This document shows, piece by piece, positions 1 through 22,219 of a DNA stretch of 64,000 nt (the stretch's first letter is position 1; every line of letters begins with the position of its first letter). This stretch comes from a virus (taxonomy: Duplodnaviria > Heunggongvirae > Uroviricota > Caudoviricetes): the IMG/VR virus record IMGVR_UViG_3300010998_001290; one strand, written 5' to 3'. The translations under genes were made by a program, and so were the position numbers. The notes beneath the pieces are model-generated. The model worked only from the letters and a program-made list of their open reading frames with translations. It had not been told where the DNA came from and did not search any database.

Positions 1-1
1 G

Positions 2-5731: not shown

Positions 5732-5745
5732 AAATACCCAAAAGT

Positions 5746-5780: not shown

Positions 5781-5786
5781 AAAAGA

Positions 5787-5836: not shown

Positions 5837-5867
5837 ATAGTGACACACTTAAGGAAGGGGGATAAAA

Positions 5868-6527: not shown

Positions 6528-6577
6528 GATTATACACATCCTTTCACTTAAGAACGAGCGTTTTCCTTCTGAACAAT

Positions 6578-6584
6578 CATACTA
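6578..6584 (+). promoter_or_regulatory. CATACTA -10-like promoter element
   Basis: 'caATCATACTAaatat' between genes. Confidence 0.45.
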
Positions 6585-6614
6585 AATATGACGGTTCTGA
6601 AGGAGGTGAGAAAG

Positions 6615-6989: not shown

Positions 6990-7004
6990 TAATCAGGAGG
7001 AATA

Positions 7005-8753
7005 ATGATGATTAAGGAACTGTTAAAGAAGTATTCGTACGATGATGTATGCGCATCTATAATAAGGTATGTGTACCGAAATATGGAATGTGCGCCTAAT
7101 GCAAGCTCTGACTTTATGGCGGAACTCAAGAAGGGCAAGGATGAGATCGTAGAGTACTTCGAGGAGGAAAAGGTAGACCAGAGCATCCAGAATGTTCTGT
7201 CTATGTTTGAAGAGGTCGCCAGCGAGAGAAGCAGGGGTGTCGTATACACACCTTTCAAGGTTTCCAAGCTCATGTTTGATAAGATAGAGGACTATAATAC
7301 CGGCATCAAGTTTATGGATCCCTCCTGCGGCAGCGGCGCAATACTCGTTAATCTGGTGGATTATATCCATAACAAGTTTATGATTTCGCCTATCGACATC
7401 ATCAACAACAGCATTTACGGCATGGACAATGACTATTTCAGCACTAAGCATTGCAAGTTTCTTCTTGAACTGCTTTGCCTCAAGCTCGGATATCACGCTG
7501 ATGGGCTCAAGATGCACATAGTCAATAACAACAGTATGCTCGTTGATTGGGATACCCTCGGCGTAAGAAAGTTTGACTACATCTTCGGCAATCCGCCTTA
7601 TATCGCTTTAAGGGATATGGATAAGGAAGAGCGCGAGCAGTATGAGAAGCAGTATGAAGTCGCTAAGGGAACATACAATATGGCGCATCTGTTCCTTGAA
7701 AAGGCTATAAAATATGTTAAGCCTAACGGCACTATATCATTCCTTGTCATCAATAATCTTTTCACACACATCTCATCGAAACCGGTAAGAGAACTCATAA
7801 TGCGCACAGGCTATCTTCACGAGGTTATTGAGTTCAATAAGATAAGGTTGTTTGAGAATGCCGAGGTGCTTACCACGCTTATCACATTAAAGGCTGCGTC
7901 GCATACCAAATTCGGCTATGCGAGACCTGAAGCTCTTAATAAGATAGTTCTTGTACAGCTTCCGCTGTCGGAACTTAAGGCTGAAGAATGGGTGTTTGCG
8001 AACGCAAAACAGAAGGAATACCTTGAGCATATCAGGTCTTTTGATACTAAGCTTAAGCCCTATATGAGCGGTTGTATAGCAACTCTTGCCGATAAGGTGT
8101 TCATTCTTGACGATGACGGAAAGACAAGAAGCAACCCCAAGAGACAGAGAGCCATAAAAATCGAGGATGGTATAATCAAGGAAATGTATCGTCCTCGCAA
8201 TATGGAAGGTGAAAAGGCTAAGAAGCTGAAGGTACTGTTTCCGTATGACGAAGACTTTAACACGCTGAGTCTCGATGATATTAAAGAAAGGTTCCCTAAG
8301 GCTTATCAGTATCTTAAAAACAACGAGGAAAAGCTGAAGCAGAGAAGCTGGCAGGATCAGTGGTACGCGTTCGGCAGAAGACAGGGGCTTGCAGTGGAGC
8401 ATAAGGCTGTTCTATTCGGCTGCTATTCCAGAAAGCCGAGATTTATCGTTCCTGATGACGATACGGCACTTCTTCTTAGCGGCGCGTACATAAGCAGCAA
8501 CATACCGGTGAAGCCTGATGTGCTTGCGGTTATCCTGAATTCCGATGTAATGGCGTGGTATATTAAGAAGGTATCGTTCCCCATTTACGGAGACTATTAC
8601 TACTACGGCAAGAAGGTCGTGGGCGACTTCTCGATACCTCCGCTTACCGAGGAAGAGGAAAAGGCGCTGCTTTCTATGACGAAGAGCGAGGTTAACGAAT
8701 TCCTTATCAAGAAGTACGATATAGAGGGTATCGAACTCGAAGAAACGGCATAA
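7005..8753 (+). CDS. N6-adenine DNA methyltransferase (gamma-class, Eco57I/TaqI-like), orphan
   Basis: Motif I '[13 protein letters not shown]' and motif IV 'IFGNPPY'. AGGAGG RBS. 582 aa with a C-terminal target-recognition-like region and no nuclease domain. Confidence 0.85.
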
Positions 8754-8763
8754 GGAGGCTTTT

Positions 8764-9207
8764 ATGAGTACGGTATATATATACAGTGACGGCGCATGTT
8801 CGGGCAACCCCGGTCCCGGAGGATACGGGGTTCTGCTCCGGCAGAAAGACAAGGAACTTGAGCTTTCAGGCGGCGAACCGGAGACAACCAATAACAGGAT
8901 GGAGCTTATGGGCGTTATTACGGGGCTTGAAGCTCTCAAAAAGCCCTGCAAGGTAATCGTCCAGACTGACTCTAAGTATGTTGTTGACGGCATAATGAAG
9001 GGCTGGGCTAAGTCTTGGAAGAAGAATGGCTGGGTTAAAGGCGATAAGAAGCCTGCGCTCAACGCAGATCTATGGGACAGACTCCTAAACCTGCTTGAAA
9101 AACACGAGGTAGAGTTTAACTGGATCAAAGGTCATGCAGGGCATCCTGAGAACGAAAGATGTGACAAACTGGCTGTAGCGGCACGCAAGAAATATGTACA
9201 CAAGTAA
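8764..9207 (+). CDS. rnhA: ribonuclease HI
   Basis: '[14 protein letters not shown]', 'TNNRMEL', 'QTDSKYV', 'WKKNGW', '[14 protein letters not shown]' are the canonical RNase H catalytic motifs. AAGGAGG RBS. Confidence 0.9.
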
Positions 9208-9222
9208 GAGGAGGAAATACAT

Positions 9223-9942
9223 ATGAATGTAAAGCAGCTTATTGACAAATGTGACGTCACCCTTCTTACCGACCAGTATCTCAATATGAACCCTGTTCCT
9301 ATTGCGGAGAGGGAAGATGAGGCGAGAGCGTTCTTAGATTTCCTGACAAGGCTTAAGGAAATAAAACCGTCTGTATCTGAGAACTACATACTTGTGTATA
9401 AGGGTTATGACGGAGATAAAGAGTTCCTGAACGCCGCTATGTTCGAGGCATCCGACATTCGAGAAAAAGTACATGATGTGTACGAATTCGATAAGCTTTT
9501 ATTCCCTGAAGACCTTTCGGATGAAGGATTTGAGGGCTTAAGAGAAATATGTAACGACTTTTTACATAATAACTATGCCATTGACTTCATCGAATGGGAT
9601 AGAGTTCTCGGCTTCAATACTGACGAAGACAACATAAAGGAGTTCGGAGCTGAAGCTGTTGCAGTAGCTATCCTCACCGAAATGACCTTTGTTTCGTTCT
9701 ACGAAGAGGATATAAAAGCCAAAAGACAGGAGATCGATGATGCTTTATCGGAGGTCGAAGAGCTTTGTGCGTCATCTTTAGAAGAAAGTAAGCTCAAAGA
9801 ACATGATCTTTTCGAGTTTAAGGACAATCGGACAGAGGAAGAAAAAGAAGTTGACAGGAAAAAGGCGCTTAAGGAGTATGTTCTTACGACGATAAGTATG
9901 TATAAGGCGTTGAAGCCTGTACATAAAAGGCTTAACGGCTGA
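9223..9942 (+). CDS. hypothetical acidic protein
   Basis: GAGGAGG RBS. Continuous ORF with codon usage like its neighbours. Confidence 0.6.
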   Translation: MNVKQLIDKCDVTLLTDQYLNMNPVPIAEREDEARAFLDFLTRLKEIKPSVSENYILVYKGYDGDKEFLNAAMFEASDIREKVHDVYEFDKLLFPEDLSDEGFEGLREICNDFLHNNYAIDFIEWDRVLGFNTDEDNIKEFGAEAVAVAILTEMTFVSFYEEDIKAKRQEIDDALSEVEELCASSLEESKLKEHDLFEFKDNRTEEEKEVDRKKALKEYVLTTISMYKALKPVHKRLNG

Positions 9943-9993
9943 TATATCAGATAGCAGCCCAATGTCATTAAGTTAAGAAAAGGGGGATAAAAT

Positions 9994-10257
9994 ATGAAAA
10001 TATCAGAAGCAAAAGAGATAATAACAAGCCTTAAAAAATTATCGGTAAATTTAGAGAAATTACGCGCTTTATCAACAGGCAATATGGGGTCAATGGTAGG
10101 CGAAGTTAAGGCTCGTGAATGGTGCAAGAACATAGAAAGTATGGCAGATATATATAATACTCCACTCCCGCTTGTTTTTCAAGAAGCCAAAAATGTCGTT
10201 GATAATGAAATCAATAGACTGAATGATTTGATTGATAACACGGACATAAATCCTTAG
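9994..10257 (+). CDS. hypothetical small protein, flanked by 18-bp inverted repeats
   Basis: AAGGGGGA RBS. The stop codon lies inside the right inverted repeat. Confidence 0.55.
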   Translation: MKISEAKEIITSLKKLSVNLEKLRALSTGNMGSMVGEVKAREWCKNIESMADIYNTPLPLVFQEAKNVVDNEINRLNDLIDNTDINP

Positions 10258-10328
10258 CTTAATGACATTGTATAGCACCCGCCGGTTCACATGAACTGAC
10301 GGGGCTTTTTATTTTCAAAATAAAATAT

Positions 10329-10335
10329 CATACTA
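10329..10335 (+). promoter_or_regulatory. CATACTA -10-like promoter element
   Basis: 'atatCATACTAttatt' after a T-tract. Confidence 0.45.
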
Positions 10336-10388
10336 TTATTATACAACCTAAACGAAGGTTGCAAAATGTACGGTAAAGGAGCATTATA

Positions 10389-10955
10389 ATGTTTAAGAAG
10401 AACGAAATCAAGAAGGCTCTTCATACAATATGTAAGAGCGAAACAATCAGCAAATCTATTCTTTCCGGTAAAACAGACGCCGAACAGTCCGATGCGGCGT
10501 TTATCAAAGGATATTCGGCTAAGATGTACTCAGACGAACTTTACGAATTCCTTAACGATGAGGCAATATCAGAACTTAAGTGTATAGAGTTTGGCGACAC
10601 TGCTGACCTTGGTGTTCTCGGCGAATGTGTATCTCACACCAATACATCTGTTAATCTGAATACTGAAATGTATGGCAACAGTAACAGAGTAGAGCGCGTC
10701 TGCAAGATAGGAACATCGAGCAAGACGGGTAGTGGTGAAACTGAAGAGACCGACGCGTTCAGGGTACAGCAGGATGAAACGACTTACATTACCGAGAACG
10801 GCAATGTGCTGACAGTAAAGGAAATCACCTATATGAAGGGCAACAAGGCGCTTGTTACGGTAAGAATCCCCGATGCTGCCATCGCACCGTCCTTCAACTT
10901 GATAAGCGGGTTACTCTCGGCTGAAGACGCAGAAGCAGAAGAAGTATCAGATTGA
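10389..10955 (+). CDS. hypothetical protein
   Basis: AAAGGAG RBS. Preceded by a CATACTA promoter element. Confidence 0.6.
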   Translation: MFKKNEIKKALHTICKSETISKSILSGKTDAEQSDAAFIKGYSAKMYSDELYEFLNDEAISELKCIEFGDTADLGVLGECVSHTNTSVNLNTEMYGNSNRVERVCKIGTSSKTGSGETEETDAFRVQQDETTYITENGNVLTVKEITYMKGNKALVTVRIPDAAIAPSFNLISGLLSAEDAEAEEVSD

Positions 10956-11031
10956 GCCATTTGCCGGGGTCAATATAATCTTAATGACTAATGGAATTGA
11001 GAGTACGATAACACTTAAGTATCGGTAAGAC

Positions 11032-11120
11032 ATGGTTACAGCGGCAATAATGGTCGCGGGAATACCTGCGGCTGCGGCAGTGACGGCGTTTGAAAAGGAT
11101 TCCGGCAAATGTTCAATAGT
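11032..11120 (+). repeat. GC-rich ~90-nt non-coding element, copy 1 (homologous to 19505-19625), ending in the shared CCCCTC..GAGGGG terminator
   Basis: Blocks 'cggcaataatggtcgcgg', 'gcggcagtgacggcg', 'tttgaaaagga' align with the second copy. GC is well above the local average. Confidence 0.5.
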
Positions 11121-11146
11121 CCCCTCTTCGGAGGGGATTTTTGCTT
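11121..11146 (+). terminator. intrinsic terminator
   Basis: CCCCTC-ttcg-GAGGGG plus a T-tract. Confidence 0.7.
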
Positions 11147-11167
11147 TCCGATTTCCAAATAAACAAT

Positions 11168-11174
11168 CATACTA
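11168..11174 (+). promoter_or_regulatory. CATACTAATAGT promoter element
   Basis: After the terminator at 11121-11146. Confidence 0.55.
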
Positions 11175-11210
11175 ATAGTAAGCTTTTTAGAAAGGAAGGT
11201 TTTTAAAACT

Positions 11211-11951
11211 ATGAAAAAGCGTACAGTAGGCGCTCTTTTAGCGAGCGCTTTAATGGCAATAATGACAGTAAGCGGATGCTCAGGGCAGAGCTCGGATAGG
11301 ACTCCGACAGGAACTCTTGCATCTACGACAACAACCAAGGCTACAACAAAGGCGACGACAGAAGAAACGGAGGAAACAACCGTGGAAGTTGAAGAGACAG
11401 AGATCGAGACCGAAGCGACGATAGAGGAAGAAGAGGAAAGCGCAGAGCCTACCGAGAAGCAGGCGGAGCTTATTGCCTTCCTTATGGAAGATCTGGACGA
11501 GAACCCTAACTCAAAGGAAAATAAGACGGCAGAGCTTAAGGAGAGTGGCTGGACGGACGAAGATATTGAGTTCGCGTTTGATTATCTTCAGGTAGATTGG
11601 GGGTATGTAGCGTCTATCAAAATGTTCAGTCTTATGGCGGATACCGAAAATCTTTCCGCGCAGGCTGTAGTAAACGAACTCAGCGGGCTCGGCTTTACAA
11701 ACGAGGAAATCGAGACAGCAATCAACGATGATATGATTGACTGGCACGAACAGGCGTTCTTTGCGGCAACCTCACTTATAGAGGATGATATGTCAATGGA
11801 AGACCTTAAGAAGAAAATGGTCGAAGATTATCTGTTTACCGAAGAGGAAGCAGACTACGCAATCAAGACCCTTGAAGATTCTGATTTCAGTTTTGAGTAC
11901 GACGGCGACATAGAAATCGGGGATGTATTCTATCCCGAAGAAGAGGAATAA
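11211..11951 (+). CDS. acidic lipoprotein
   Basis: Signal peptide with lipobox 'TVSGC', Thr/Glu low-complexity linker. AAAGGAAGG RBS. Confidence 0.7.
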   Translation: MKKRTVGALLASALMAIMTVSGCSGQSSDRTPTGTLASTTTTKATTKATTEETEETTVEVEETEIETEATIEEEEESAEPTEKQAELIAFLMEDLDENPNSKENKTAELKESGWTDEDIEFAFDYLQVDWGYVASIKMFSLMADTENLSAQAVVNELSGLGFTNEEIETAINDDMIDWHEQAFFAATSLIEDDMSMEDLKKKMVEDYLFTEEEADYAIKTLEDSDFSFEYDGDIEIGDVFYPEEEE

Positions 11952-12003
11952 TTAACATTAAGCCTTCCGTTTGGAGGGCTTTTTGTTTTTGCAACTACTC
12001 TGT

Positions 12004-12010
12004 CATACTA
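12004..12010 (+). promoter_or_regulatory. extended -10-like TGtCATACTA promoter element followed by a ~165-nt leader
   Basis: 'gcaactactcTGtCATACTAtat' after a terminator. Confidence 0.55.
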
Positions 12011-12176
12011 TATAAGCAAACACTCTTGACGCTTATATGTGATGAGCCTTCCCAGCGCTCCTTTTAGGATTATTAGAGTAAGTGTAAATGAGAAGTAGTT
12101 CGCATTTTCTCAAATAATCTGTGCTCATCAATGAAGCATTGAGAAGTTTGAATAATACTTAAAGGAGGAATTAGCA

Positions 12177-13634
12177 ATGGTTAATTCAAGAAAGTCGGTT
12201 TTTACGAAAGCCGCAGCGATAGCAATGTCTATCACAATGCTTACATCAGCGTTATCGTTTGGTGTTAACGCATCAGCAGCAGACCTCGAAAGTACAGCAA
12301 CAGTTGCATCATCCGGACCTGTAGTATCGTGTCCGATTGAAGATGGTGTTCTTTACATAACTATCGAGGGCGGTCAGTGGAAACACTGGATTGAGTACGC
12401 CTCCGGCGAAGCAACATCGGGATACGGCACGCTTGATATCAAGACAATCAACGGAGTTGAAACATTCATTTATTCGGATACTGACGGAAATGTAATTCTT
12501 CAGTGGGATGAAGAGGCTCCCTCTAATTCCGGCGGCAGAGGCGATATCACTGATGGCGAAGAAGAGGAGAACGAAGAGGAGACCGGTGCGGTTGACCTCA
12601 AAATCGCGGAAAAGCTTCTGAATATGCTTTATGCAGAACAGAGTGCGTTGAGCGAGGAAGCGGGCTACTTCAACGATATGTACAAGGAACTGAAGTCGTC
12701 AATATCTGAAGCTACAACGATAAAATCAGTTCTGAGAAACACGATGTCCAACGATGAACTGGCTGACATCACAGAGTATATCAAAGCCGCTAATAAGCAG
12801 AAGACATATGCTTATAATCAGTATAAGCGTTTCAATTCTGCTGCTACAAGATGCGGGAATGAGATAAGACTTATCGAAAAACGTCTCGGCAAGAGTAATT
12901 CCGTAGTAGATGTATCCGGTGGAGAAGGCACTTCGTCTAAGAGCGCAGGCACAGGCGGTCTGTCCTTCTGGAAGAGCAGTGCTTATCAGAACGCGGCATC
13001 TAACGGCTATGGTGATGCAACAGATAAGATCGTTACATTCTCCGATGACGAAAAACTGTTCCTTAAGGCGATAAACGAGTATAAGCAGAGTTATTCCACT
13101 AAGGTTTATGCTGTAATTACAGTAAGAAGCAAGACGGAGACTTACTACCTTAAGTATTTCCCCAAGGATAAGGCTGTGTACAGAGTAACTGTAAAGGGCA
13201 CGAAGCTCAGTAATACGCCTGAATACAGTTCGGCGGATATAGCGAAGGGACTGCTCAAGAATTATAAGTTCGCTTATGATAAGCTGAAACAGATCCTTAA
13301 CTATGATTACGCGGTATATACGGCTGCTACCTCTTTCTATGAAGAAAAGGGCAAGCTGTTAAACGAGAAGTATAACGCCATAAAGGACTATAAGACGGAA
13401 CACAAAAAGGATTTTTCTGTAGCTGAACGCGAAACTGTTGATGCAATCATCAACACGTTGGGAGGCAGCGGCACACATCATTATAGGGTTATGGCTGTAA
13501 AGACCGGTAAGATATACCAATCTGGTCCCATAAGCCTTTACAAGTATGCTGCGAAGGAAGTTGAAAAGACAGCGAAATCTATGGGTGTAACGCTTACGTC
13601 TACCGCGACCTCTGGCGATACAGCTAACGGATAA
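12177..13634 (+). CDS. secreted protein, paralogue family member A
   Basis: Sec signal peptide 'AAAIAMSITMLTSALSFGVNASA'. Paralogous to 14328..15920. AAAGGAGG RBS. Confidence 0.75.
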   Translation: MVNSRKSVFTKAAAIAMSITMLTSALSFGVNASAADLESTATVASSGPVVSCPIEDGVLYITIEGGQWKHWIEYASGEATSGYGTLDIKTINGVETFIYSDTDGNVILQWDEEAPSNSGGRGDITDGEEEENEEETGAVDLKIAEKLLNMLYAEQSALSEEAGYFNDMYKELKSSISEATTIKSVLRNTMSNDELADITEYIKAANKQKTYAYNQYKRFNSAATRCGNEIRLIEKRLGKSNSVVDVSGGEGTSSKSAGTGGLSFWKSSAYQNAASNGYGDATDKIVTFSDDEKLFLKAINEYKQSYSTKVYAVITVRSKTETYYLKYFPKDKAVYRVTVKGTKLSNTPEYSSADIAKGLLKNYKFAYDKLKQILNYDYAVYTAATSFYEEKGKLLNEKYNAIKDYKTEHKKDFSVAERETVDAIINTLGGSGTHHYRVMAVKTGKIYQSGPISLYKYAAKEVEKTAKSMGVTLTSTATSGDTANG

Positions 13635-13660
13635 GGCTTTTATCACCGACATATTACAAG

Positions 13661-13690
13661 ACCCCGTTCTATACGGGGTTTTGTTTTTGC
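13661..13690 (+). terminator. intrinsic terminator
   Basis: CCCCG-ttctata-CGGGG plus TTTTGTTTTT. Confidence 0.7.
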
Positions 13691-13701
13691 AACTGCTCTG
13701 T

Positions 13702-13708
13702 CATACTA
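13702..13708 (+). promoter_or_regulatory. extended -10-like TGtCATACTA promoter element
   Basis: 'gcaactgctcTGtCATACTAat' after the terminator at 13661-13690. Confidence 0.55.
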
Positions 13709-13762
13709 ATCTCACAGGCTTTAAAGGCTTGGAATTATTTTATTATTAAGGAGGAGATAACA

Positions 13763-14209
13763 ATGGTTAATCTCAAGAAAACGGTAGCATCGCTTTTAGC
13801 GGTAACGGCAATCATTTCGTCCATGTCAGTAGGGGCAAGTGCGGCGACGGTTTATTCGTCCGGCGGCACAAGTAGCTCGTCAAGCAGCTCATCTAACTCG
13901 TCCTCCAGCAGCGGTACAAACAGCGGTTCAGGGTCAAGCTCAGGCAGCTCATGGAACGGCGGAGTATCACGCAGTTCAGGACTGAATATTGACGCCAAAA
14001 GTATGACCGGTAGCGGTACATTTAAATCACCTTATAAGGCAGTGAAGGGAACTCTTACTGTAAGAGCACCCGGCAAACTCACAAAGACCACAAAGACTAC
14101 CGTAAACGGCAGGAAGGTCACTGTTCTGACCTACAAAGGTGCTAACAGCAACGATACCGTTTATGTACAGAAGGGTTCAATACTCTACAAGTACGTACTT
14201 ACTAAGTAA
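13763..14209 (+). CDS. secreted Ser/Gly-rich protein, signal peptide related to the flanking paralogues
   Basis: Signal peptide 'LLAVTAIISSMSVGASAATVYSSG' matches 14328's 'LTSALSVGASAATIYSSG'. AAGGAGGAG RBS. Confidence 0.7.
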   Translation: MVNLKKTVASLLAVTAIISSMSVGASAATVYSSGGTSSSSSSSSNSSSSSGTNSGSGSSSGSSWNGGVSRSSGLNIDAKSMTGSGTFKSPYKAVKGTLTVRAPGKLTKTTKTTVNGRKVTVLTYKGANSNDTVYVQKGSILYKYVLTK

Positions 14210-14267
14210 ATCATAACACAAACAAAGCTCCTCCTCTGAGGGGCTTTTGTTTTTTGTATTAGTCTGT

Positions 14268-14294
14268 CATACTAATACATGCGAATGATGACAT
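14268..14294 (+). promoter_or_regulatory. TGtCATACTA promoter element plus the 16-bp perfect palindrome CGAATGATGACATTCG
   Basis: The palindrome begins 5 nt after the -10-like element. Confidence 0.5.
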
Positions 14295-14327
14295 TCGTAT
14301 ACATTATTAAAGAAGGAGGAGTTAACG

Positions 14328-15920
14328 ATGGTTACTTCAAAGAAAAACGCGATGATAAGAGCGGCGGCTATAGCTATGTCTTTGACGATGCTTACATCTG
14401 CTTTATCTGTCGGAGCAAGCGCGGCAACTATCTATTCAAGTGGTTCTGCTTCAAGTTCAAACAACGAATCAAGAGACAATGATATTGGACCTGCAATCAT
14501 TGCTTTCCCGTTAGCGGAAGGTGTTCTCCATATCACTACGGGGAATTCGACAGGTTCTTGGACGCAGCATTGGATAGAAGCTTATCCGGAAGGGGCTATG
14601 TCGGCAGACGAGCTTTATGTCCTCACACAAGTGGAAGGCAATAAGGGTATTGATTATGCGCTTACCGATCCTTCGGGCAATATCGTTCAGCAATGGACGG
14701 AAGAGTATTCCTATCCTACAGGGGGCGTACTCGAAGCAGAGGCGATAGAACTTACTGAAGAGGAAGCCGAAAGGATTACAAGTTCCTTAAGGAAAGACTA
14801 TGCAGCGGCCGGAGAGATCGATAACGAGCTCGGTTATCAGCTTCTCGATGCTCTTTACGAGGAACAGACGGTATTGACAAAAGCTGTAAACTTCTATAAG
14901 GAGTTATCAACCTCGCGCAGGGAATCGGCAAAGGGCGCGGCTAATGTCAAGGTAAAGCTTTCAGCGGCGCTTTCCAGTGCTCAGAAGAACGACCTTACAG
15001 ATTACATCAACAATTGTAATAAGGAAGCGTCATACTTCACGAGACGGGCAACCACGCTTAATAGTATGCTTTCTCAGACAAAAACGGAGATAAAGAGACT
15101 TACAAAGGCTCTGGGCAACATCTCTAAGAAATATGGCTCCGGTGACGAAAAAGAGTATTTTATTCCGGTGTATGGCGGCTTAAGTGAGAATATAGACACT
15201 TCTACAACAAGAATGAGCAACGATGGCTACTTCGCATTCTGGAACAGCTATCATATAGGTAATGCTCTCGGAGTTGACACAAGCTCAGGAATGTATCTCG
15301 TTATAGGCAAGCCGATAGTAGGTATTTCGGGGGATATGGCACTTCTCTTAGCACTTTGCAACAATCCCGGCAAGCCTTATGACCTTACGAACTCAAAAGG
15401 TGAGACTGTTTATGTTGCTTACATAGGCGGCAAGGTCTATAATGTGGACGCAAAGGGCAAAAAGCTCAGCAAGAAGGAAGCATTTGACATCAGCGATACC
15501 GTTAAGCATATCGTAGGTCGTTATTCCTTAAGCAGCAGCGAGGCAGCTCTTAACGCTTCACTTGAGGAAAAGCTGGTCTATGAGACGGCGGCGGACTTCT
15601 ATAAGACAAAATCCGAAGAAATCAAGGAAATTGTATCTCTTCTGAAGAAGTATAAGAACGATAATTCCAAGACATTATCTTCTACCGACAAATCTAAGCT
15701 TACAGCTTATATTAACGCTTATAACAGCTCAGCAACCTACTTCACGAGAAGAAAGAACTCGTACACAAGTATGTCGAAGACGGCGAATACTGAGGCAAAG
15801 AGACTTTCTAAGCTTCTTGAGGTAACAGGCGACAGTTCCGGCAAGACAGGCGACTTCGGCTTCTGGAAGACGGCTCTTACAGAGGGAAGATTCGTTCCGA
15901 CATATATGTACGCTTCGTAA
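14328..15920 (+). CDS. secreted protein, paralogue family member B, with an internal duplication
   Basis: Signal peptide almost identical to 12177's. Internal repeats 'YINNCNKEASYFTRR' and 'YINAYNSSATYFTRR'. GAAGGAGGAG RBS. Confidence 0.75.
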   Translation: MVTSKKNAMIRAAAIAMSLTMLTSALSVGASAATIYSSGSASSSNNESRDNDIGPAIIAFPLAEGVLHITTGNSTGSWTQHWIEAYPEGAMSADELYVLTQVEGNKGIDYALTDPSGNIVQQWTEEYSYPTGGVLEAEAIELTEEEAERITSSLRKDYAAAGEIDNELGYQLLDALYEEQTVLTKAVNFYKELSTSRRESAKGAANVKVKLSAALSSAQKNDLTDYINNCNKEASYFTRRATTLNSMLSQTKTEIKRLTKALGNISKKYGSGDEKEYFIPVYGGLSENIDTSTTRMSNDGYFAFWNSYHIGNALGVDTSSGMYLVIGKPIVGISGDMALLLALCNNPGKPYDLTNSKGETVYVAYIGGKVYNVDAKGKKLSKKEAFDISDTVKHIVGRYSLSSSEAALNASLEEKLVYETAADFYKTKSEEIKEIVSLLKKYKNDNSKTLSSTDKSKLTAYINAYNSSATYFTRRKNSYTSMSKTANTEAKRLSKLLEVTGDSSGKTGDFGFWKTALTEGRFVPTYMYAS

Positions 15921-15945
15921 GCGGCTACTATACGAATGAAATAAC

Positions 15946-15976
15946 AGAGCTTTGTGAACGCAAGGCTCTGTTTTTC
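15946..15976 (+). terminator. intrinsic terminator
   Basis: CAGAGC-tttgtgaacgcaag-GCTCTG plus TTTTTCTT. Confidence 0.65.
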
Positions 15977-15977
15977 T

Positions 15978-16058
15978 TGTGTACGAAAGACATAAGTTTC
16001 CATTTTTACCTCTGAACTATCATACTATTATTAGAATCATTATCTGAGACGAACGGAG
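15978..16058 (+). promoter_or_regulatory. full tripartite cassette: TGTGTACGAAAGACATAAGTTT, 21 nt, CATACTA, 20 nt, GACGAACGGAG
   Basis: All three boxes present, after the terminator at 15946-15976. Confidence 0.6.
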
Positions 16059-16126
16059 TTTCTGATATGGTTTGACAAGATTATCTTAAGGATAACAATT
16101 TTAATTCAAGAAAGGAAAGAAAGATT

Positions 16127-16786
16127 ATGAACTACGAAATGCCTATACGCTTTTTTGACGCACAGGGCGGAAGAGTATTCTCGCTTATCGGAGAGATAAA
16201 CGAATCTGTGTACGAAAACAGGGCGAAAATCATCGACAAGAGGCTGTACGACATTCCGACTGTAAACGAAGGGGCTACAGCTAAACTCTCAAATGAACTT
16301 TCTGCAAAGGATAGGAGCTGGATAACAGAGCTTTTCACAGTAAAGTTCATTTATTGGGCAAAGAAGGGTATCCTTGGTGTAGCAGGAGCCGCTGCTGAGA
16401 TAGAAAATTTCAGCGTTCCTTCAAGCGCAGTCATCTTCCAGAACGGATACGACCGCGATTATGCGTGCGAGTCTTATCCTAAACTTCCGTTCTTTCAGGT
16501 TATGATCCAGAGGAACAGGGAGCTTTCGGTCGAAGATATACGTCGGATTGCCAACAGAACCGCCGATGAAAGCGAGGACTACGTCAACATCGTCGTGCGT
16601 GATACATATCTCTACGATTGTATCGAAAGCGAACTCGAAATTCCTGCTATCATCGCCGGAACAGAAGGCGAAAGCTTTGAAACTATCAGCATCAATGCTC
16701 TTAACAGCTTTGATAAGGTCAAGACCGTAGAAAAGATGGTCTATGACTACATCTATCGTGAGCAGTTAAGACGCGAGCTTAAGTAA
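16127..16786 (+). CDS. hypothetical protein
   Basis: AAAGGAAAG RBS region. Preceded by a full tripartite promoter cassette. Confidence 0.6.
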   Translation: MNYEMPIRFFDAQGGRVFSLIGEINESVYENRAKIIDKRLYDIPTVNEGATAKLSNELSAKDRSWITELFTVKFIYWAKKGILGVAGAAAEIENFSVPSSAVIFQNGYDRDYACESYPKLPFFQVMIQRNRELSVEDIRRIANRTADESEDYVNIVVRDTYLYDCIESELEIPAIIAGTEGESFETISINALNSFDKVKTVEKMVYDYIYREQLRRELK

Positions 16787-16796
16787 TGGGGGTTAT

Positions 16797-17456
16797 ATGA
16801 ACTGTAATAAGAAAATTGATAACGGGATAATAAAGCTTACACGCCCTGAGCTTCAGGAAAACGAGCGATATTGTCCCGCTTGTGATGGCTACGGCTATGT
16901 AATGAACGGATATGGGTGGTTTCAGCCTTGCCCTAAATGCGATTGGGGCAAAGTCTACTTATGCCCTCATGGAAATATGACAAGCAATGTCAATAACTGT
17001 TCCTGCTTCTTATGTGTCAAAGACCGTAACGAAAAAAGCTTTAAAAGCCAAATTAAGATCACAAAAGCCAGACCTCTCGAAGAAGTACCTGAAGATGAGA
17101 AGATAATGTTCTTCTCGGAATATATGGGTGAGTATGGCGACTATTTCAGTGACATTGAAGAGCTGGTCGATTACTGTTTGACCAACAGCAAGGATATTCC
17201 TGATTATGTGTGGCCGACGGTGAAGAGTACTATTGCAACTGAGCTTAACGCATATAGCATCATTGAGGAGGCGTGTGAAAACTTACACACAGATGCGATG
17301 GATTTCATATCCAATGATGATATTAAGGCTCTTGACACAAAGCTTCAGGAATGGGCAAGTGGTATAACCGGCACTGAAACCTATTATCAGCTCGATTATT
17401 ACCGCATAGATATAAAAGATGCGGTAAAAGAGATACTTGAGAGAAGAAAGGACTAA
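16797..17456 (+). CDS. hypothetical protein with a DnaJ-CR-like zinc finger (CxxCxGxG) and extra Cys clusters
   Basis: 'CPACDGYGYV...CPKCDWG...CPHG'. GGGGG RBS. Confidence 0.6.
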   Translation: MNCNKKIDNGIIKLTRPELQENERYCPACDGYGYVMNGYGWFQPCPKCDWGKVYLCPHGNMTSNVNNCSCFLCVKDRNEKSFKSQIKITKARPLEEVPEDEKIMFFSEYMGEYGDYFSDIEELVDYCLTNSKDIPDYVWPTVKSTIATELNAYSIIEEACENLHTDAMDFISNDDIKALDTKLQEWASGITGTETYYQLDYYRIDIKDAVKEILERRKD

Positions 17457-17461
17457 GACGA

Positions 17462-17707
17462 ATGCTTTCGGAAAGACTTCATGAATTGAGAAAGATTAAA
17501 AACCTTACACAGAATGAAGCTGCTGAAGCGATGGGCATTGTATCAAGAACATATGGCGGTTACGAGCGCGGAGAAAGGGAGCCTGATATCAAAACAATGA
17601 TAAAAATGGCTGATTATTTCAACTGCACCCTTGACTACCTTGTAGGAAGATCATTTAAGCCCAAATATGTTGTAAAGGTAAAGGTCAGAAAGTCAAAAAA
17701 GAGGTGA
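17462..17707 (+). CDS. XRE-family helix-turn-helix transcriptional regulator
   Basis: 'LRKIKNLTQNEAAEAMGIVSRTYGGYERGEREPDIKTMIKMADYFNCTLDYLVGR' is the canonical Cro/C1-type HTH. Confidence 0.85.
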   Translation: MLSERLHELRKIKNLTQNEAAEAMGIVSRTYGGYERGEREPDIKTMIKMADYFNCTLDYLVGRSFKPKYVVKVKVRKSKKR

Positions 17708-17719
17708 AAATCAGAAAGA

Positions 17720-18175
17720 ATGGAAACACTTGAAGCGAGAAAAGCTAAAGCAGCAACTCTCTTGAAGAACATAAAGAACGAGTATGAAGTCGAAATCCAA
17801 CAGGTATGTACAGAACTTAAAGCCGGGTACGAACAGGCAGACGATATACAAAGCGTTGTTGATGAGGCTCAATGGATAATGTGCCTTGATTGGGTCAAGA
17901 AACAAATCATTGACCGCGAAGGCGATATGTTTTGGGCTTTTCAAAGAGGTTATGAAGACGGAAATTATCTGTTTTGGATTGATGATGACGACATTATGAT
18001 GATGTTAGCCCTCAAAGATAAGTGGATAAGAAAACTGTTCTTTGTGACAATGCTTGAGTGCGGAAGCATTTACGGTTTAACCGATGTGAATGAAACATCC
18101 ATCGGGCGACTAATGTTTACTGCTCTTGATGCAGTAATGTATAAGCAAAATACGGAAATCTTTCAAATCGTCTGA
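17720..18175 (+). CDS. hypothetical protein
   Basis: AGAGGTGA RBS region. Continuous ORF. Confidence 0.55.
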   Translation: METLEARKAKAATLLKNIKNEYEVEIQQVCTELKAGYEQADDIQSVVDEAQWIMCLDWVKKQIIDREGDMFWAFQRGYEDGNYLFWIDDDDIMMMLALKDKWIRKLFFVTMLECGSIYGLTDVNETSIGRLMFTALDAVMYKQNTEIFQIV

Positions 18176-18200
18176 GCTAATCAGGAAGGAGAATATAATA

Positions 18201-18737
18201 ATGAACAATGAAGTAACATACGCAAACAGAATGACAGTAGGTCAGCTTGCCGATGAGCTTAAGAAGCACAACCCGGAATTATATGTGGTTGTTTCCCAGA
18301 GTAAAGGAAGCTACACATTTTTACAGTCGATTTCGGTTGAGCACGACGACAACGAGGATATAAAGGACGTTCTCGCTCTCACGGCTAATCCTATGACCTT
18401 TGTTGACGGCAAGCCTGTCACAACAGGGGGAGTTAAGTACAAAATCGGCAAGGATGGCGCTCTCGTGTTAGGCAAGGAAGGCGAAGACTCCGAAAGCGAC
18501 GCTATAGCCGCTCGTATCAATGAGCTTGAGGACAATTATCTCGCTCAGGGAGCTGAGCTGGAAATCGATTGGGACGATGACCGTAAGGCGTGGATGGCGA
18601 TGAACTATTACAGTGCTATGGGTCAGGCTTCTCCTATCGAAGATAAAGACGGCAATCCCATAATCGCTTTCTCTGGGGTAAACCACAGCCTTGCTATCAA
18701 TGTTCTTGACAACTTCGAGATATACTATGTTTATTAA
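18201..18737 (+). CDS. hypothetical protein
   Basis: GGAAGGAG RBS. Confidence 0.6.
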   Translation: MNNEVTYANRMTVGQLADELKKHNPELYVVVSQSKGSYTFLQSISVEHDDNEDIKDVLALTANPMTFVDGKPVTTGGVKYKIGKDGALVLGKEGEDSESDAIAARINELEDNYLAQGAELEIDWDDDRKAWMAMNYYSAMGQASPIEDKDGNPIIAFSGVNHSLAINVLDNFEIYYVY

Positions 18738-18813
18738 AGATCATCTATGGTAATACCATATCAACTTCAAAGACCCCTTGTATAAGGGGTTTTTGTTTTT
18801 CTTGGGCAACAAT

Positions 18814-18820
18814 CATACTA
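18814..18820 (+). promoter_or_regulatory. CATACTAATAGT promoter element
   Basis: After the terminator at 18772-18800. Confidence 0.55.
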
Positions 18821-18866
18821 ATAGTAGCAGGGAAACCTGAAATCAACAAGAAGGAGGAAAACGGCA

Positions 18867-19004
18867 ATGGTTAAGTCCAATAAGGTCAAGGCAGCGCTCA
18901 TCGGCGGAGCTATTGTGCTTGTAGTTGCGGCGGCAGCTGTATTTGCAGGAACAATGGGCGTTGAGATGCCCAAGGCGGTGCTTGCCAGCATTTGTCCTAA
19001 GTAA
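18867..19004 (+). CDS. small hydrophobic (single-TM) peptide, 45 aa; not in the ORF track
   Basis: GAAGGAGGAAAA RBS 7 nt before ATG 18867. 'MVKSNKVKAALIGGAIVLVVAAAAVFAGTMGVEMPKAVLASICPK'. Sits between a promoter element and a terminator. Confidence 0.55.
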   Translation: MVKSNKVKAALIGGAIVLVVAAAAVFAGTMGVEMPKAVLASICPK

Positions 19005-19072
19005 ATTGCTCAATTTCAGAGTGATTGTTAACCCCTCCGAGCGAGGGGTTTTTGTTTTCTCTTCTAAACTGT

Positions 19073-19110
19073 CATACTATGTTTATGAGAATCGAATAAG
19101 ACGAATGGAG
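19073..19110 (+). promoter_or_regulatory. TGtCATACTA plus GACGAATGGAG cassette
   Basis: After the terminator at 19032-19058. Confidence 0.6.
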
Positions 19111-19153
19111 TTTTATTACGGTTCTTAATAATCAGAAAGGAAAGGTAATTGTT

Positions 19154-19468
19154 ATGATCAAAACAATTGACAATGTGAATGTCACCATCAATGGCGATGA
19201 TACCATGTCTGACGAGGAAGTAAAGGCTTACATCGACCGTGGTCGCGAGCAGAAGAAGCATATGAAGCTTCTCGAAATCGAGGTTACAGTAGACGGCGAT
19301 GAAGTTGACCTCAAGTACAGATATGAAGATCAGCCTTTTGAACGCATCCGCAGAATAACGGGTTATCTGGTCGGAACACTTGACCGCTTTAACAACGCAA
19401 AACGCGCTGAGGTCAACGACAGAGTAAAGCATACTATTCAGGATGACTGCGAGGACGTTTACATCTAA
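19154..19468 (+). CDS. hypothetical protein
   Basis: AAAGGAAAGG RBS. Preceded by a CATACTA plus GACGAATGGAG cassette. Confidence 0.6.
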   Translation: MIKTIDNVNVTINGDDTMSDEEVKAYIDRGREQKKHMKLLEIEVTVDGDEVDLKYRYEDQPFERIRRITGYLVGTLDRFNNAKRAEVNDRVKHTIQDDCEDVYI

Positions 19469-19504
19469 ACAGAAGAAGAAATACAGACGAATAAGGAACT
19501 GAAA

Positions 19505-19625
19505 GCGGCTTTCGGCATTGTTCCGGAGGCGTCGCCGCAATAGTGGCGGCAGGCGGTGACAGCGGCGAGTCGGCAGGCTGATCACTAAGGTTTTGAAAGT
19601 ACTGACAAAAAGAATCGTAAACAGA
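19505..19625 (+). repeat. GC-rich non-coding element, copy 2, with hairpin GCCGC-aatagtg-GCGGC
   Basis: No ORF in any frame. Aligns block-wise with 11032-11120. Directly precedes the terminator and dnaG. Confidence 0.5.
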
Positions 19626-19650
19626 CCCCTCTGCGGAGGGGTTTTGTTTT
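19626..19650 (+). terminator. intrinsic terminator immediately upstream of dnaG, with no promoter element between
   Basis: CCCCTC-tgcg-GAGGGG plus TTTTGTTTT. Confidence 0.65.
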
Positions 19651-19666
19651 AGGGGGAAGTGATAAT

Positions 19667-20659
19667 ATGAGTGAAGAGCTTTCTACACAGGGTTCGAATG
19701 CAAAGGAAATAACAAGACTTCTTGAAATGAATAGGGAAGCGGCAAGGTACTTCAGGGATACTCTTCTCTCTCCCAATGGAAGTGAAGGACTTGAGTATCT
19801 GAAGGAAAGGCAGCTAACTTCCGGCACTATAAGAAAGTACGGTCTTGGTTATGCTACCGATGAATGGCACGGTCTTCATTATTATCTTCGTAAAAAAGGC
19901 TACTCTGACTCCGAGATGGAGGAAGCCGCATTGGTTTCGAGAGGTAAAAAGGGTGTTTATGACAAGTTCAGACAACGAGTAATATTCCCTATAATTGACA
20001 GATGCGGCAATGTTGTTGCTTTTGGCGGCAGAGCTCTTGATAAAGAGGCTAAGGCAAAGTACATCAATAGCGATGAAACGCCTTTGTTTCATAAGAGAAT
20101 GAGCTTGTTTTCGCTGAATTTTGCCCAAAAGACAAAGAAAAGGTATCTTATACTGTGCGAAGGATATATGGATGTGATTTCTTTAAATCAGGCGGGCTAC
20201 GATAACGCCATAGCAACGCTTGGTACATCTATGACTTTGCAGCAGGCTGAAATTATGAAGCATTATGCTGAAGAAATCATTATTTCATACGATTCTGATG
20301 AAGCAGGACAAAACGCCACCAAAAAGGCAATCAGGCTTCTTAATGAGGTTGATTTACCTTCACGGGTGATAAAAGTCCCTAACGCAAAGGATCCTGATGA
20401 GTTTATCAAGGCGTATGGAGCTAAAAGCTTTGAGGAAGTGATAAACGCATCGATATCCTTGGTAAGCTTTGAGTTTGAGATACTTAAGAACAGTTTCGAT
20501 GTCAAGACAGCTAACGGAAAGGCAGAATTTCTGAAGGAAGCCATTGCTTTCCTTGCGAGTTATAGAGACAAGTATGATTGTTCAGCTTATATGTATGTGA
20601 TATCCGATATGACCGGGATCCCGTACAACGCAATCAATGAGCTTGTTGAAATGGCATAA
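19667..20659 (+). CDS. dnaG: DnaG-type DNA primase, TOPRIM core only; lacks the N-terminal zinc-binding and C-terminal helicase-binding domains
   Basis: 'FRQRVIFPIIDRCGNVVAFGGRAL...KYINSDETPLFHK', 'LILCEGYMDVISLNQAGYDNAIATLGTSMT', 'IISYDSDEAGQNATKKA' match the DnaG RNA-polymerase/TOPRIM region. AGGGGGAAG RBS. Confidence 0.8.
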   Translation: MSEELSTQGSNAKEITRLLEMNREAARYFRDTLLSPNGSEGLEYLKERQLTSGTIRKYGLGYATDEWHGLHYYLRKKGYSDSEMEEAALVSRGKKGVYDKFRQRVIFPIIDRCGNVVAFGGRALDKEAKAKYINSDETPLFHKRMSLFSLNFAQKTKKRYLILCEGYMDVISLNQAGYDNAIATLGTSMTLQQAEIMKHYAEEIIISYDSDEAGQNATKKAIRLLNEVDLPSRVIKVPNAKDPDEFIKAYGAKSFEEVINASISLVSFEFEILKNSFDVKTANGKAEFLKEAIAFLASYRDKYDCSAYMYVISDMTGIPYNAINELVEMA

Positions 20660-21937: not shown

Positions 21938-22219
21938 ATGGGCATTAAAAGGACTAACAAAAGGAAACAGGCAACCTTCCTCGTTTTTGTTAACAGCAGT
22001 GATGAAATCAAGAAGGAAATATCGTTATCCGGACTTGCATTCGTGCGCGATTACAATATGGGCTGGTTTGAAGTCCCTTATTCAATGGTCGAGAAGTTCA
22101 CCGAAAGGTTTGGACTTAAGGTCGATACAAGGGAAGACTCCTCGATTTGTGATCTCGATGTCACTGAAGAAGGCATTATAGCATCGAATATGAGCAGATG
22201 GGGAGGCTGCATAGCATGA
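21938..22219 (+). CDS. hypothetical protein
   Basis: AAGGAGAG RBS. Confidence 0.55.
   Translation: MGIKRTNKRKQATFLVFVNSSDEIKKEISLSGLAFVRDYNMGWFEVPYSMVEKFTERFGLKVDTREDSSICDLDVTEEGIIASNMSRWGGCIA

Follow-up and report, generated by a model that had tools for sequence, protein, structure and literature searches.

Two genes of this phage-like sequence end in long, GC-rich, hairpin-forming tails that run from the stop codon to a stock intrinsic terminator. We consider this finding to be of modest weight, and propose, tentatively and at somewhat less than even confidence, that structured 3′-UTR modules are the best reading of both loci. The window analyzed here, 64,000 nt in length, is part of a 301-kb phage-like contig with all genes on the plus strand, and the host of the phage is apparently of a Clostridia type. 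The initial annotation had described the loci as copies of a repeated element; that description was partly real but over-read, and past one 20-base hairpin the likeness of the two loci as copies of one repeated element is not convincing.

The first locus (copy 1) lies downstream of orf188 (10389–10955 in the list of open reading frames), where 162 nt separate the stop codon from an intrinsic terminator, AGUCCCCUC-UUCG-GAGGGGAUU with a U-tract (11118–11146). The second (copy 2; 19469–19622) is a 154-nt GC-rich 3′ UTR that follows the gene for a 104-aa stand-alone glycyl-radical domain (NrdD C-terminus, GrcA-like; 19154–19468; Pfam PF13597, E = 8.8e-8; PHROG 487) and ends at the terminator AGACCCCUC-UGCG-GAGGGGUUU with its U-tract (19623–19650). 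The ribosome-binding site of a DnaG-type primase that lacks the zinc-binding domain (19667–20659) comes directly after, and this downstream neighbor lies outside the element. Where other terminators of the window come after a stop codon, the corresponding distance is 4–78 nt, mostly 4–36. No promoter motif occurs between the stop codon and the terminator at either locus; the phage promoter motif CATACTAATAGT, which with its close variants is found 14 times in the window and mostly ~20–45 nt downstream of a terminator, follows copy 1 at 11168–11179, where it serves an Ltp-like lipoprotein gene (11211–11951). Both loci had been placed at the 3′ end of an operon, of which the 3′ end of a gene is borne out for each.

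Over the intervals of the initial annotation the GC content is 52% for copy 1 and 56% for copy 2, not the ~60% claimed; only the 50-nt cores are higher (66% and 74%, respectively), against a mean of 42.5% and a standard deviation of 6.9% for 50-nt windows across the 64 kb. The copy 2 core is the highest-GC 50-mer of the 64 kb, and the copy 1 core is among the top five. The terminators, which had been counted as part of the element, are a stock part: CCCCTC-N4/5-GAGGGG occurs four times in the window, the 16-base stem-loop of the copy 1 terminator recurs at 25080 with no GC-rich element upstream, and the same terminator hairpin is present in Streptomyces and other unrelated phages.

In both MFE and centroid structures, copy 1 is predicted to form an extended stem-loop (11035–11084) with an outer stem GUUAC...GUGAC, and the same structure is predicted in relative L006. 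This stem-loop contains the hairpin shared by the two loci, GUCGCGGG-AAUA-CCUGCGGC (11053–11072), and is followed by a second predicted hairpin with the apex AAAAGGAUUCC (11085–11113). For copy 2 the predicted fold consists of a first hairpin (19508–19530), the shared hairpin, GUCGCCGC-AAUA-GUGGCGGC (19531–19550), and a third hairpin with a GUGAC block (19555–19586). Without the terminator the cores fold at z ~ -2.8, and relatives give the same MFE. The shared hairpin had been recognized in copy 2 only, as GCCGC-AATAGTG-GCGGC at 19528–19545; a hairpin is indeed present there, better drawn as the 8 bp of GTCGCCGC-AATA-GTGGCGGC at 19531–19550, and its counterpart of the same type in copy 1 had been missed.

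What the two loci have in common is a core of ~37 nt, made up of the 8-bp hairpin with its AAUA loop, GUCGC-NNN-AAUA-NNN-GCGGC, and then the GUGAC block; the overall folds around it are unlike. Three pairs of the hairpin differ between the copies and all are still paired, with all five mismatches of the 20-mer placed so that eight pairs persist. Among the three distinct hairpin versions 24 of 24 cells are paired, two pairs having changed in both bases and two in a single base, a result that was matched by 49 of 500 shuffles in a pairing test on the three sequences. The pattern GTCGCNNNAATANNNGCGGC matches only these two sites, even at two mismatches.

The statistical case for a kinship between the two loci is borderline. 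The sequence blocks of the initial annotation are found where it put them, at 11043, 11074 and 11089 and at 19536, 19552 and 19592, but their alignment block by block as a ~100-nt repeat is not confirmed as going beyond chance. Local alignment upstream of the terminators gives p = 0.004–0.03 against dinucleotide shuffles; other places in the window reach equal or greater scores, and the pair ranks 6th of 300 among terminator-upstream pairs. When only copy 1 is used to build a covariance model, copy 2 is recovered with 15.3 bits (E ~0.09), below a spurious match, and no third copy was found in the ~79 kb searched. These results do not establish that the loci form one repeated family to which the terminator is fused. 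The suggested link through CGCAATAGT to a third site at 58501 is at chance level: two copies are reached in 9 of 100 shuffles, and the supposed structured leader at 58.5 kb folds no better than shuffles (z = -0.8) and is not matched by the core model.

Relatives that are ~90% identical show two differences in the 234 nt around copy 1 (10938–11171), whereas divergence at the four-fold sites of the two flanking genes is ~0.24. The only substitution within the copy 1 hairpin in these relatives, C11057U, converts a C–G pair to U–G and keeps the pair. In copy 2 the substitutions in the third hairpin (19576 and 19581) affect bases that are not paired, and the MFE structure is unaltered; the low divergence of this copy is weak as evidence of selection, because four-fold sites of the adjacent gene are equally unaltered (1/35). 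Copy 2 and the GrcA-like gene are held together in a low-divergence tract (~19040–19657) that starts within one CCCCTC..GAGGGG terminator, stops just past the next, just before the primase, and has far more diverged flanks. Several further intergenic regions are likewise near-invariant, and the conservation may therefore reflect recombination or homogenization of intergenic modules rather than RNA function. Both elements are absent from relatives at 47–67% identity, and there were no diverged homologues usable for covariation. Homologues of orf188 span 47–98% identity; in those at 47–49% the next gene begins 15 nt downstream, without such a UTR. Cassette indels separate the window from its relatives.

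A structured 3′-UTR RNA was among the candidates of the initial annotation, and we favor it on the basis of where the loci lie among stop codons, promoter motifs and terminators, their predicted fold, the kept pairs of the hairpin and the conservation of copy 1. Each locus would be a long (~155–160 nt), GC-rich, hairpin-forming 3′ UTR ending at a stock intrinsic terminator, probably transcribed as the mRNA tail of the upstream gene (copy 1 with orf188, copy 2 with the GrcA-like gene). The loci would not be copies of a 100-nt repeat, but would present a ~37-nt common core in otherwise unlike folds. The stable stem-loops before the terminator would most likely act at the RNA level: they could shield the upstream message at its 3′ end or mark that end, the common hairpin could bind a phage or host RNA-binding protein, and segments could be released as 3′-UTR-derived small RNA. 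The copy 2 terminator would lie inside an operon, with the primase start ~17 nt past the U-tract. No promoter motif is found between this terminator and the primase ATG (19667); with no recurrent-motif promoter before it, the primase would on this reading be transcribed by read-through, and the copy 2 terminator would therefore be an attenuator that sets the primase well below the upstream gene.

A coding origin for the loci appears doubtful to us. Copy 1 would in this case be the gene for a hydrophobic peptide of 32–47 aa, ORF47 (MVTAAIMVAGIPAAAAVTAFEKDSGKCSIVPSSEGIFAFRFPNKQSY; 11032–11175), and copy 2 the frameshifted, start-less relic of a similar gene for a small membrane or signal peptide, with the GC-richness and hairpins arising as by-products of Ala/Gly (GCN/GGN) codons. 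Hairpin potential can be such a by-product because GCN-rich coding sequence is self-complementary, and an identical 20-mer is found within a Gly-rich gene of a soil contig. The ORF47 frame, annotated by the JGI gene caller, has a codon-usage score of 0.325 bits/codon, which is also the average of true genes, with negative off-frames; copy 2 is pieced together from coding-like frames (TEEEIQTNKELKAAFGIVPEASPQ to a stop, then VAAIVAAGGDSGESAG to a stop), and both hairpins translate as V-A-x-I-x-A-A in these frames. A bona fide gene for a 45-aa Ala-rich membrane peptide, with promoter, strong SD and terminator, lies close to copy 2 (18867–19004). However, the anti-SD pairing of ORF47 is at the level of random positions (-3.1 kcal/mol, versus -10.6 ± 2.6 for 63 genes), with only 3% of genes as weak. 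Its stop codon is located past the terminator, and its C-terminus varies between relatives through an IS insertion or a TAG in the terminator loop, the latter in the four aligned IS-carrying relatives. There are no synonymous changes where ~5 are expected, and the sole change is non-synonymous yet keeps its base pair. A search of 5.8 billion proteins returned only ORF47 itself and one relative, with no homologues outside the lineage, and no protein family was found for it; protein-level similarity among ORF45, ORF47 and the copy 2 frames is not significant, and true TM segments in the genome are AT-rich, unlike the cores. The initial statement that neither locus has a consistent ORF agrees with our data, copy 1 having only the 47-codon ORF through the terminator and copy 2 stops in all six frames. 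A zinc-finger-relic reading was also tried, and failed its test. It is likewise unlikely that the loci are unrelated GC-rich leftovers, such as scars where cassettes were deleted, with a chance 20-mer and a role as mere spacer before the terminator. The pairwise p values, the rank among terminator-upstream pairs and the leave-one-out E value given above are compatible with coincidence, the p values being prior to any correction for post-hoc choice. The hairpin-plus-GTGAC pattern occurs at 48 sites in other metagenome or viral contigs, most of them GC-rich, with the inner three positions fully paired in 4 of the 48, about the chance rate, and the elements are missing in more distant relatives. 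Against this, a neutral divergence of 0.24 predicts tens of differences around copy 1 rather than two, and the loci are alike in strand, 3′-UTR position, length class and a hairpin type whose mismatches preserve its pairs.

We regard as improbable that copy 1 is a stand-alone trans-acting sRNA of ~160 nt, transcribed from its own sigma-70-like promoter to the terminator and working, for example, as a CsrA/RsmA-type sponge via GGA motifs or by base-pairing. The hexamers TTGAGC-N16-TATAAT upstream of copy 1 (10952–10979) match the consensus at 10 of 12 positions, with a perfect TATAAT, and are unchanged in relatives; they are a possible, weak candidate for such a promoter, but sigma-70-like sites are not more numerous than in shuffles. 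Conservation of copy 1 is strong, jumbo phages are known to have small RNAs (PMC11512511), and the lowest E value of the whole-window Rfam scan (0.015) belongs to a full-length, sub-threshold RsmY match of 26.9 bits, in which the second hairpin of copy 1 is aligned to RsmY GGA motifs and AAGGAU lies at a hairpin apex. This score is nevertheless far under the gathering cut-off of 57, copy 1 has only about three GGA motifs, one of them in a predicted loop, and copy 2 has no such match. The other CCCCTCTTCGGAGGGG terminator (25080) gives an STnc100 match of 27.7 bits, which argues that such Rfam matches are largely terminator-driven. A DNA-level element is highly improbable, whether as a replication origin or primase-loading site or as a miniature mobile repeat (REP/MITE-like), both of which had initially been listed as candidates. 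Copy 2 does adjoin the primase gene, and in relatives an IS605-family element uses the copy 1 intergenic region. However, GC skew stays positive and flat throughout the window, with no inflection, no iterons were found, the zinc-finger-less primase of distant phages overlaps the preceding gene and has no upstream intergenic region, and copy 2 belongs to the low-divergence tract of its upstream gene. Only two copies were found in ~79 kb, with no terminal repeats and no empty-site (presence/absence) polymorphism, and the IS605-type TnpB unit is inserted outside copy 1, between 11158 and 11159, with unrelated end hairpins.

REP sequences protect upstream mRNA from 3′–5′ exonucleases, and GC-rich palindromes in 3′ UTRs are REP-like. 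The structured 3′-UTR segments resemble REP and other stabilizing stem-loops as GC-rich imperfect palindromes past a stop codon, on the transcribed strand and upstream of or near the transcript end, and in that the stem ends stay the same from one to the other while the inner pairs vary. In contrast to REP, only two copies were found in ~79 kb, each hairpin sits in a different larger fold, and the effect on stability is putative; among the proteins that were scanned close to the loci we noted no RAYT-type transposase. Prophage type I toxin genes encode small hydrophobic peptides, such as Fst, TxpA and BsrG. ORF47 is similar in its 32–47 aa with one hydrophobic helix and a charged tail, its structured mRNA, terminator and phage location, but differs in having no ribosome-binding site, no detected antisense promoter and no homologues found. 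The resemblance to RsmY (RF00195) lies in a length of ~110–120 nt, GGA motifs, a terminal GC-rich terminator and alignment to the full-length model, whereas the sub-cut-off, largely terminator-driven score, the few GGA motifs and a phage of an apparently Clostridia-type host, not Pseudomonas, set copy 1 apart. Jumbo phages produce small RNAs, some of them UTR-derived (PMC11512511; PMC8244752), and our segments are likewise short, structured, non-coding and terminator-bounded, in a giant phage, and kept among close relatives; the jumbo-phage sRNAs are transcript-mapped and mostly 5′-UTR-derived, whereas these are predicted 3′-UTR segments, and Rfam revealed no sequence relation between them. 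T4-like phages carry the composite terminator/promoter motifs termed PeSL (PMC2839356; PMC4122927), in which the terminator–promoter junction itself is the motif; here the GC-rich segments lie upstream of the junction and outside it, and the copy 2 terminator has no promoter after it. As in PeSL, gene cassettes are divided by stock terminators with a stock promoter motif close behind, and the low-divergence tract bounded by terminators is what exchange at such motifs predicts.

The window is part of the 301,622-bp JGI metagenome contig Ga0139362_1000266, and its plus strand carries nearly all of the genes. No tRNA genes and no Rfam families at gathering level were found in the window, and no close relative of it was found among GenBank phages; many gut-type assemblies yielded a sister lineage, whose primase is 92% identical. 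The genes of the window are set apart by stock intrinsic terminators, which fall into a few recurring sequence types such as CCCCTC..GAGGGG and AAGGACGYC..GRCGTCCTT, and these are usually followed within ~20-45 nt by the promoter-like motif aATCATACTAaTAnT. This motif, which has no canonical -35 element, occurs itself or as close variants at 14 sites in the window, from 1625 to 61962. A 22-nt motif, TGTGTACGAAAGACAWAAGTTT, is found at 5787-5808, 15978-15999, 31124-31145 and 33593-33614, with a looser variant near 58350; up to three mismatches it gives four matches in the window, against none in shuffles. At several of these sites the promoter motif CATACTA(A/T)TA follows ~20 nt later; the 22-nt motif may serve one class of genes as an operator or as an upstream promoter element. 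At least 12 paralogous LRR_5 genes (BspA-type leucine-rich repeats; products of ~310 aa) stand in tandem at 597-5731 and in the region upstream (1-11889 of the fetched locus L152), and two cassettes of the window are missing from the sister lineage, one at 12177-14209 (orf485 and orf148, flanked by terminator/promoter junctions) and one at 17462-18175 (an HTH gene and orf151). A Phage_ProQ_C_like protein is encoded at 22198-22593, ~3 kb downstream of the second of the two segments considered here, and just beyond the 3' end of the window (12424-13872 of the fetched locus L151) is a gene for a 482-aa product that weakly matches Cas12f1-like_TNB (TnpB-type).

The two GC-rich segments both follow the last codon of an upstream gene. 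Copy 1 (~11032-11146) follows orf188 (10389-10955) and precedes an Ltp-like lipoprotein gene (11211-11951); copy 2 (19505-19650) lies between a 104-aa stand-alone glycyl-radical gene (NrdD C-terminal, GrcA-like; 19154-19468) and a gene for a 330-aa DnaG primase without a zinc-binding domain (19667-20659). The promoter-like motif is present upstream of orf188, as CATACTATTATT at 10329, and an apparent variant, CATACTATG, is present upstream of the GrcA-like gene near 19075. No terminator was found between the upstream gene and 11118 in copy 1 or 19623 in copy 2, and both segments would be transcribed as 3'UTRs. The distance from stop codon to terminator is 162 nt for copy 1 and 154 nt for copy 2, compared with 4-36 nt for most other terminators of the window and 63-78 nt for a few. 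The terminators themselves are both predicted to be intrinsic by a terminator scan, each with nine pairs, a 4-nt loop and a T-tract. No 50-mer of the 64 kb is richer in GC than the core of copy 2 (74%; the mean is 42.5%), and the core of copy 1, at 66%, is among the top five; the ~60% GC that the initial annotation assigned to the segments is too high, the values over its intervals being 52% and 56%. The sequences and blocks from which it argued were recovered at or near the positions it reported, and its description of the reading frames is accurate: the sole ORF of copy 1 has 47 codons and continues through the terminator (ORF47, 11032-11175, plus strand), and copy 2 has stops in all frames.

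The two segments had been described as copies of a ~100-nt element fused to a terminator, and this larger repeat is not established. The near-identical terminators provide no evidence for it, since they are stock parts of the terminator-promoter cassette system that also occur without the element and in unrelated phages. There are four CCCCTC-N4/5-GAGGGG terminators in the window, two of them with no GC-rich element; the one at 25080 has a 16-base stem-loop identical to that of copy 1 and no GC-rich element upstream. The sole database DNA matches of either copy region are to this terminator hairpin in unrelated phages, those of Streptomyces among them. The similarity of the stretches that precede the terminators is borderline. 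Their best local alignment spans 37 columns with 28 identities, and comparison with dinucleotide shuffles gives p = 0.004-0.03, varying with the scoring; with strict scoring the partner copy is outscored by other parts of the window, and with lenient scoring it comes within the top 0.02-0.4% of windows. The pair ranks sixth when 300 pairs of regions upstream of terminators are compared. When a covariance model is trained on copy 1 only, copy 2 is its third-ranked match (15.3 bits, E about 0.09), and a spurious minus-strand match scores better. A model of the shared ~37-nt core, run with filters off, found no third copy in the 64-kb window and none in ~15 kb of extra flank from the same contig or in other relatives, so that the search covered ~79 kb of the 301,622-bp contig. 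The proposed link of the hairpin loop and flank to a structured leader at ~58.5 kb also falls away: two occurrences of CGCAATAGT arise in 9 of 100 shuffles, the shared-core model does not detect the site, and the leader (58.4-58.6 kb) folds no better than shuffles (z = -0.8) and has no significant Rfam match, the only two sub-threshold ones lying just upstream on the terminator region. The connection to the promoter motif through its terminal AATAGT is a trivial hexamer overlap.

What the copies do share is a 20-nt hairpin of one design, followed 5-7 nt on by a GUGAC-containing block. The hairpin reads GUCGCGGG-AAUA-CCUGCGGC in copy 1 (11053-11072) and GUCGCCGC-AAUA-GUGGCGGC in copy 2 (19531-19550); the loop and the five outer pairs are identical, and the three inner pairs differ and are all still paired. 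The pattern GTCGCNNNAATANNNGCGGC matches just these two sites, even at two mismatches. When the C11057U substitution of the relatives is included, the hairpin GUCGC-N3-AAUA-N3-GCGGC is paired in 24 of 24 cells, with both partners altered in two pairs and one partner altered in two more, although this comparison has only three distinct sequences and little power, and is equalled by 49 of 500 shuffles. Without their terminators both cores have a predicted fold with z about -2.8. The overall folds are not alike: the GUGAC block of copy 1 pairs in an outer stem that encloses the hairpin, and that of copy 2 is part of a separate third hairpin. A scan of IMG/VR with the copy-2 20-mer gave no match, and a degenerate hairpin-plus-GTGAC pattern gave 48, all in contigs other than the source; most of these contigs are GC-rich, pairing is no more frequent than by chance, and the closest match is inside a Gly-rich gene.

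Comparison with the sister lineage bears on the conservation of copy 1. Both copy regions are 98-99% identical to the window there, against ~89-92% DNA identity for the genes, in which four-fold sites differ by 0.14-0.38. Copy 1 (10938-11171) has two differences, between flanking genes that both have a four-fold divergence of 0.24. We retain a small gene, ORF47 or a relic of one, as the main rival to a structured 3'UTR. The codon usage of the first 29 codons of ORF47 scores as high as that of true genes does on average, with negative off-frames; two coding-like frames, broken by stops, make up a mosaic in copy 2; and a real gene for a 45-aa Ala-rich membrane peptide (ORF45, 18867-19004) lies nearby. 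ORF45, a single helix with a promoter motif at 18814, a strong Shine-Dalgarno sequence and its own terminator, was used as the positive control in the tests for signals of small genes. Codon usage is the one coding feature that ORF47 displays. It has no ribosome-binding site (-3.1 kcal/mol, compared with -10.6 +/- 2.6 in 63 genes and -4.0 at random positions), its stop codon lies beyond the terminator, its C-terminus varies among relatives, and no homologues were found outside the lineage; nor do the cores resemble the genome's true transmembrane segments, which are AT-rich. No significant protein-level relation was found among ORF45, ORF47, the copy-2 frames and the Ltp signal peptide, the hints seen being insignificant. 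Nor is there a synonymous bias: in the sister lineage ORF47 has no synonymous change and one non-synonymous change (Ala to Val), which keeps the hairpin pair. On this comparison of sequences, the absence of synonymous change and a sole substitution that alters the peptide yet keeps the pair point to constraint on the nucleotides of copy 1 rather than on a peptide. Homogenisation of intergenic modules could also lie behind the conservation of copy 1, since several other intergenic regions are as invariant. Between the two lineages 9943-9993, 10219-10388 and 15921-16126 have 0-1 difference in 51-206 nt, next to genes that differ at 14-24% of their four-fold sites; other intergenic regions are 7-12% diverged. 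Two further coding explanations were rejected: recoding of TAG to open a copy-2 frame leaves no start codon and a negative coding score after the TAG, and copy 1 as a C-terminal relic of orf188 does not agree with the homologues, which have no such tail.

Readings at the DNA level fare less well than a structured 3'UTR. An origin or primase-loading element, suggested earlier from the proximity of copy 2 to dnaG, is not supported, given a flat skew, the absence of iterons, a primase linkage that is not conserved, and the position of copy 2 inside the low-divergence tract of its upstream gene. The miniature mobile repeat that was also suggested, considered here as an element of REP or MITE type, is not supported either: ~79 kb gave two copies only, with no polymorphism and no terminal repeats. 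Both copies are present in all close relatives, and no flanking repeats were found at them. An IS605-family element (~1.4 kb, TnpB only, 372 aa, minus strand) is present in six fetched sister-lineage loci (L004, at 3120-4500, L005 and L007-L010), inserted between window positions 11158 and 11159, ~12 nt past the tail of the copy 1 terminator (11146) and just ahead of the promoter motif. The site is empty in the window and in locus L006, and in the relatives that carry the insertion the terminator loop reads UUAG, not UUCG. An origin of copy 1 as an IS200/IS605 end or PATE derivative was rejected, as the element lies outside copy 1 and its end hairpins (ctccgccc..gggcggag type, ccccaactt..aagttgggg) are unrelated. 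The possibility that copy 2 is a relic of a primase zinc-binding domain was likewise rejected: the tblastn match of TESGFRHCSG..AAGGD to TESQSFYCFGCGAGGD reached only E = 0.08 (800-nt target, ~100 queries), and with a profile of the zinc-binding domains of 91 homologues the site is outside the top 15 window matches. This profile found no such domain anywhere in the 64 kb. The primase (19667-20659) begins directly at its catalytic core; its closest homologues (56-62% identity) mostly have the zinc-binding domain, and other phage homologues at 51-55% are without it.

Among known RNA families, RsmY (RF00195) gives a full-length match to copy 1 at 26.9 bits, short of the gathering cut-off of 57. 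Matches of this type are largely driven by the terminator, since another sRNA family gives a similar sub-threshold match on the identical terminator at 25080. Copy 1 contains about three GGA motifs, one of which (AAGGAU) is placed at a hairpin apex by the predicted fold. A solitary CRISPR repeat, as in an RNA anti-CRISPR, was rejected, the sub-threshold CRISPR-DR matches being confined to the terminator hairpin and the start of the Ltp gene, with none on the cores. Both elements are missing from more distant relatives (43-67% protein identity). Where the primase is zinc-finger-less and 53-55% identical, its gene overlaps the one before it, and the fetched loci L015 and L016 have no intergenic region there; the GrcA-like homologue at 67% identity is followed by an AT-rich region, and orf188 homologues at 47-49% identity by the next gene after 15 nt. 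The relatives that do carry the elements are all 98-99% identical there and allow no real test of covariation.

Taken together, our data confirm the observation of the initial annotation in part and support its interpretation in part: the 100-nt repeat is not established, and the links to the third site, the promoter motif and an origin fail. Both features are ordinary in kind, namely 3'UTRs with structure that precede stock terminators, in a phage genome built of cassettes, and the shared hairpin is the one modestly interesting detail. We propose an action of the extra stem-loops at the RNA level, by stabilizing or marking the 3' end or by offering a binding site at the AAUA hairpin that both have; release as a 3'UTR-derived RNA is a further possibility. 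The terminator of copy 2 is followed by the primase start within 17 nt, with no promoter of the recurrent motif between them. The primase would be transcribed by read-through, and this dependence would make the terminator an intra-operon attenuator. The positions of the segments, their predicted folds, the kept pairs and the conservation are observed; their transcription, effects on stability, binding and read-through are inferred. It is a long shot, in our judgement, that the AAUA hairpin and GUGAC block form a lineage-specific RNA recognition module in 3'UTRs of certain early or auxiliary genes, bound by a phage RNA-binding protein (the ProQ-C-like protein being a candidate), or that the segments are instead set free as small RNAs which control message stability and read-through into the primase. 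If the hairpin module were functional, it would represent post-transcriptional 3'UTR control in an uncultured giant phage of gut or rumen type, and would give a handle on the dosing of a primase that sits behind a terminator without a promoter of the recurrent type. To our knowledge, RNA-level regulation in such giant phages is almost unexplored. At present the main value of these observations is corrective.

The conservation of copy 2 allows no inference on constraint, because this copy sits in a low-divergence tract in which the adjacent gene is equally unchanged. This tract (19040-19657), which includes the promoter, the GrcA-like gene, its 3'UTR and the terminator, is ~2% diverged from the sister lineage, compared with ~10-12% in its flanks, and the GrcA-like gene has one change in 35 four-fold sites. 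Its left edge falls inside the CCCCTC..GAGGGG terminator that comes before, and its right edge just beyond that of copy 2. Its boundaries and divergence suggest a recently exchanged promoter-gene-UTR-terminator cassette, with exchange at the terminator sequences; in this the tract resembles the PeSL-mediated shuffling seen in T4-like phages (PMC2839356; PMC4122927).
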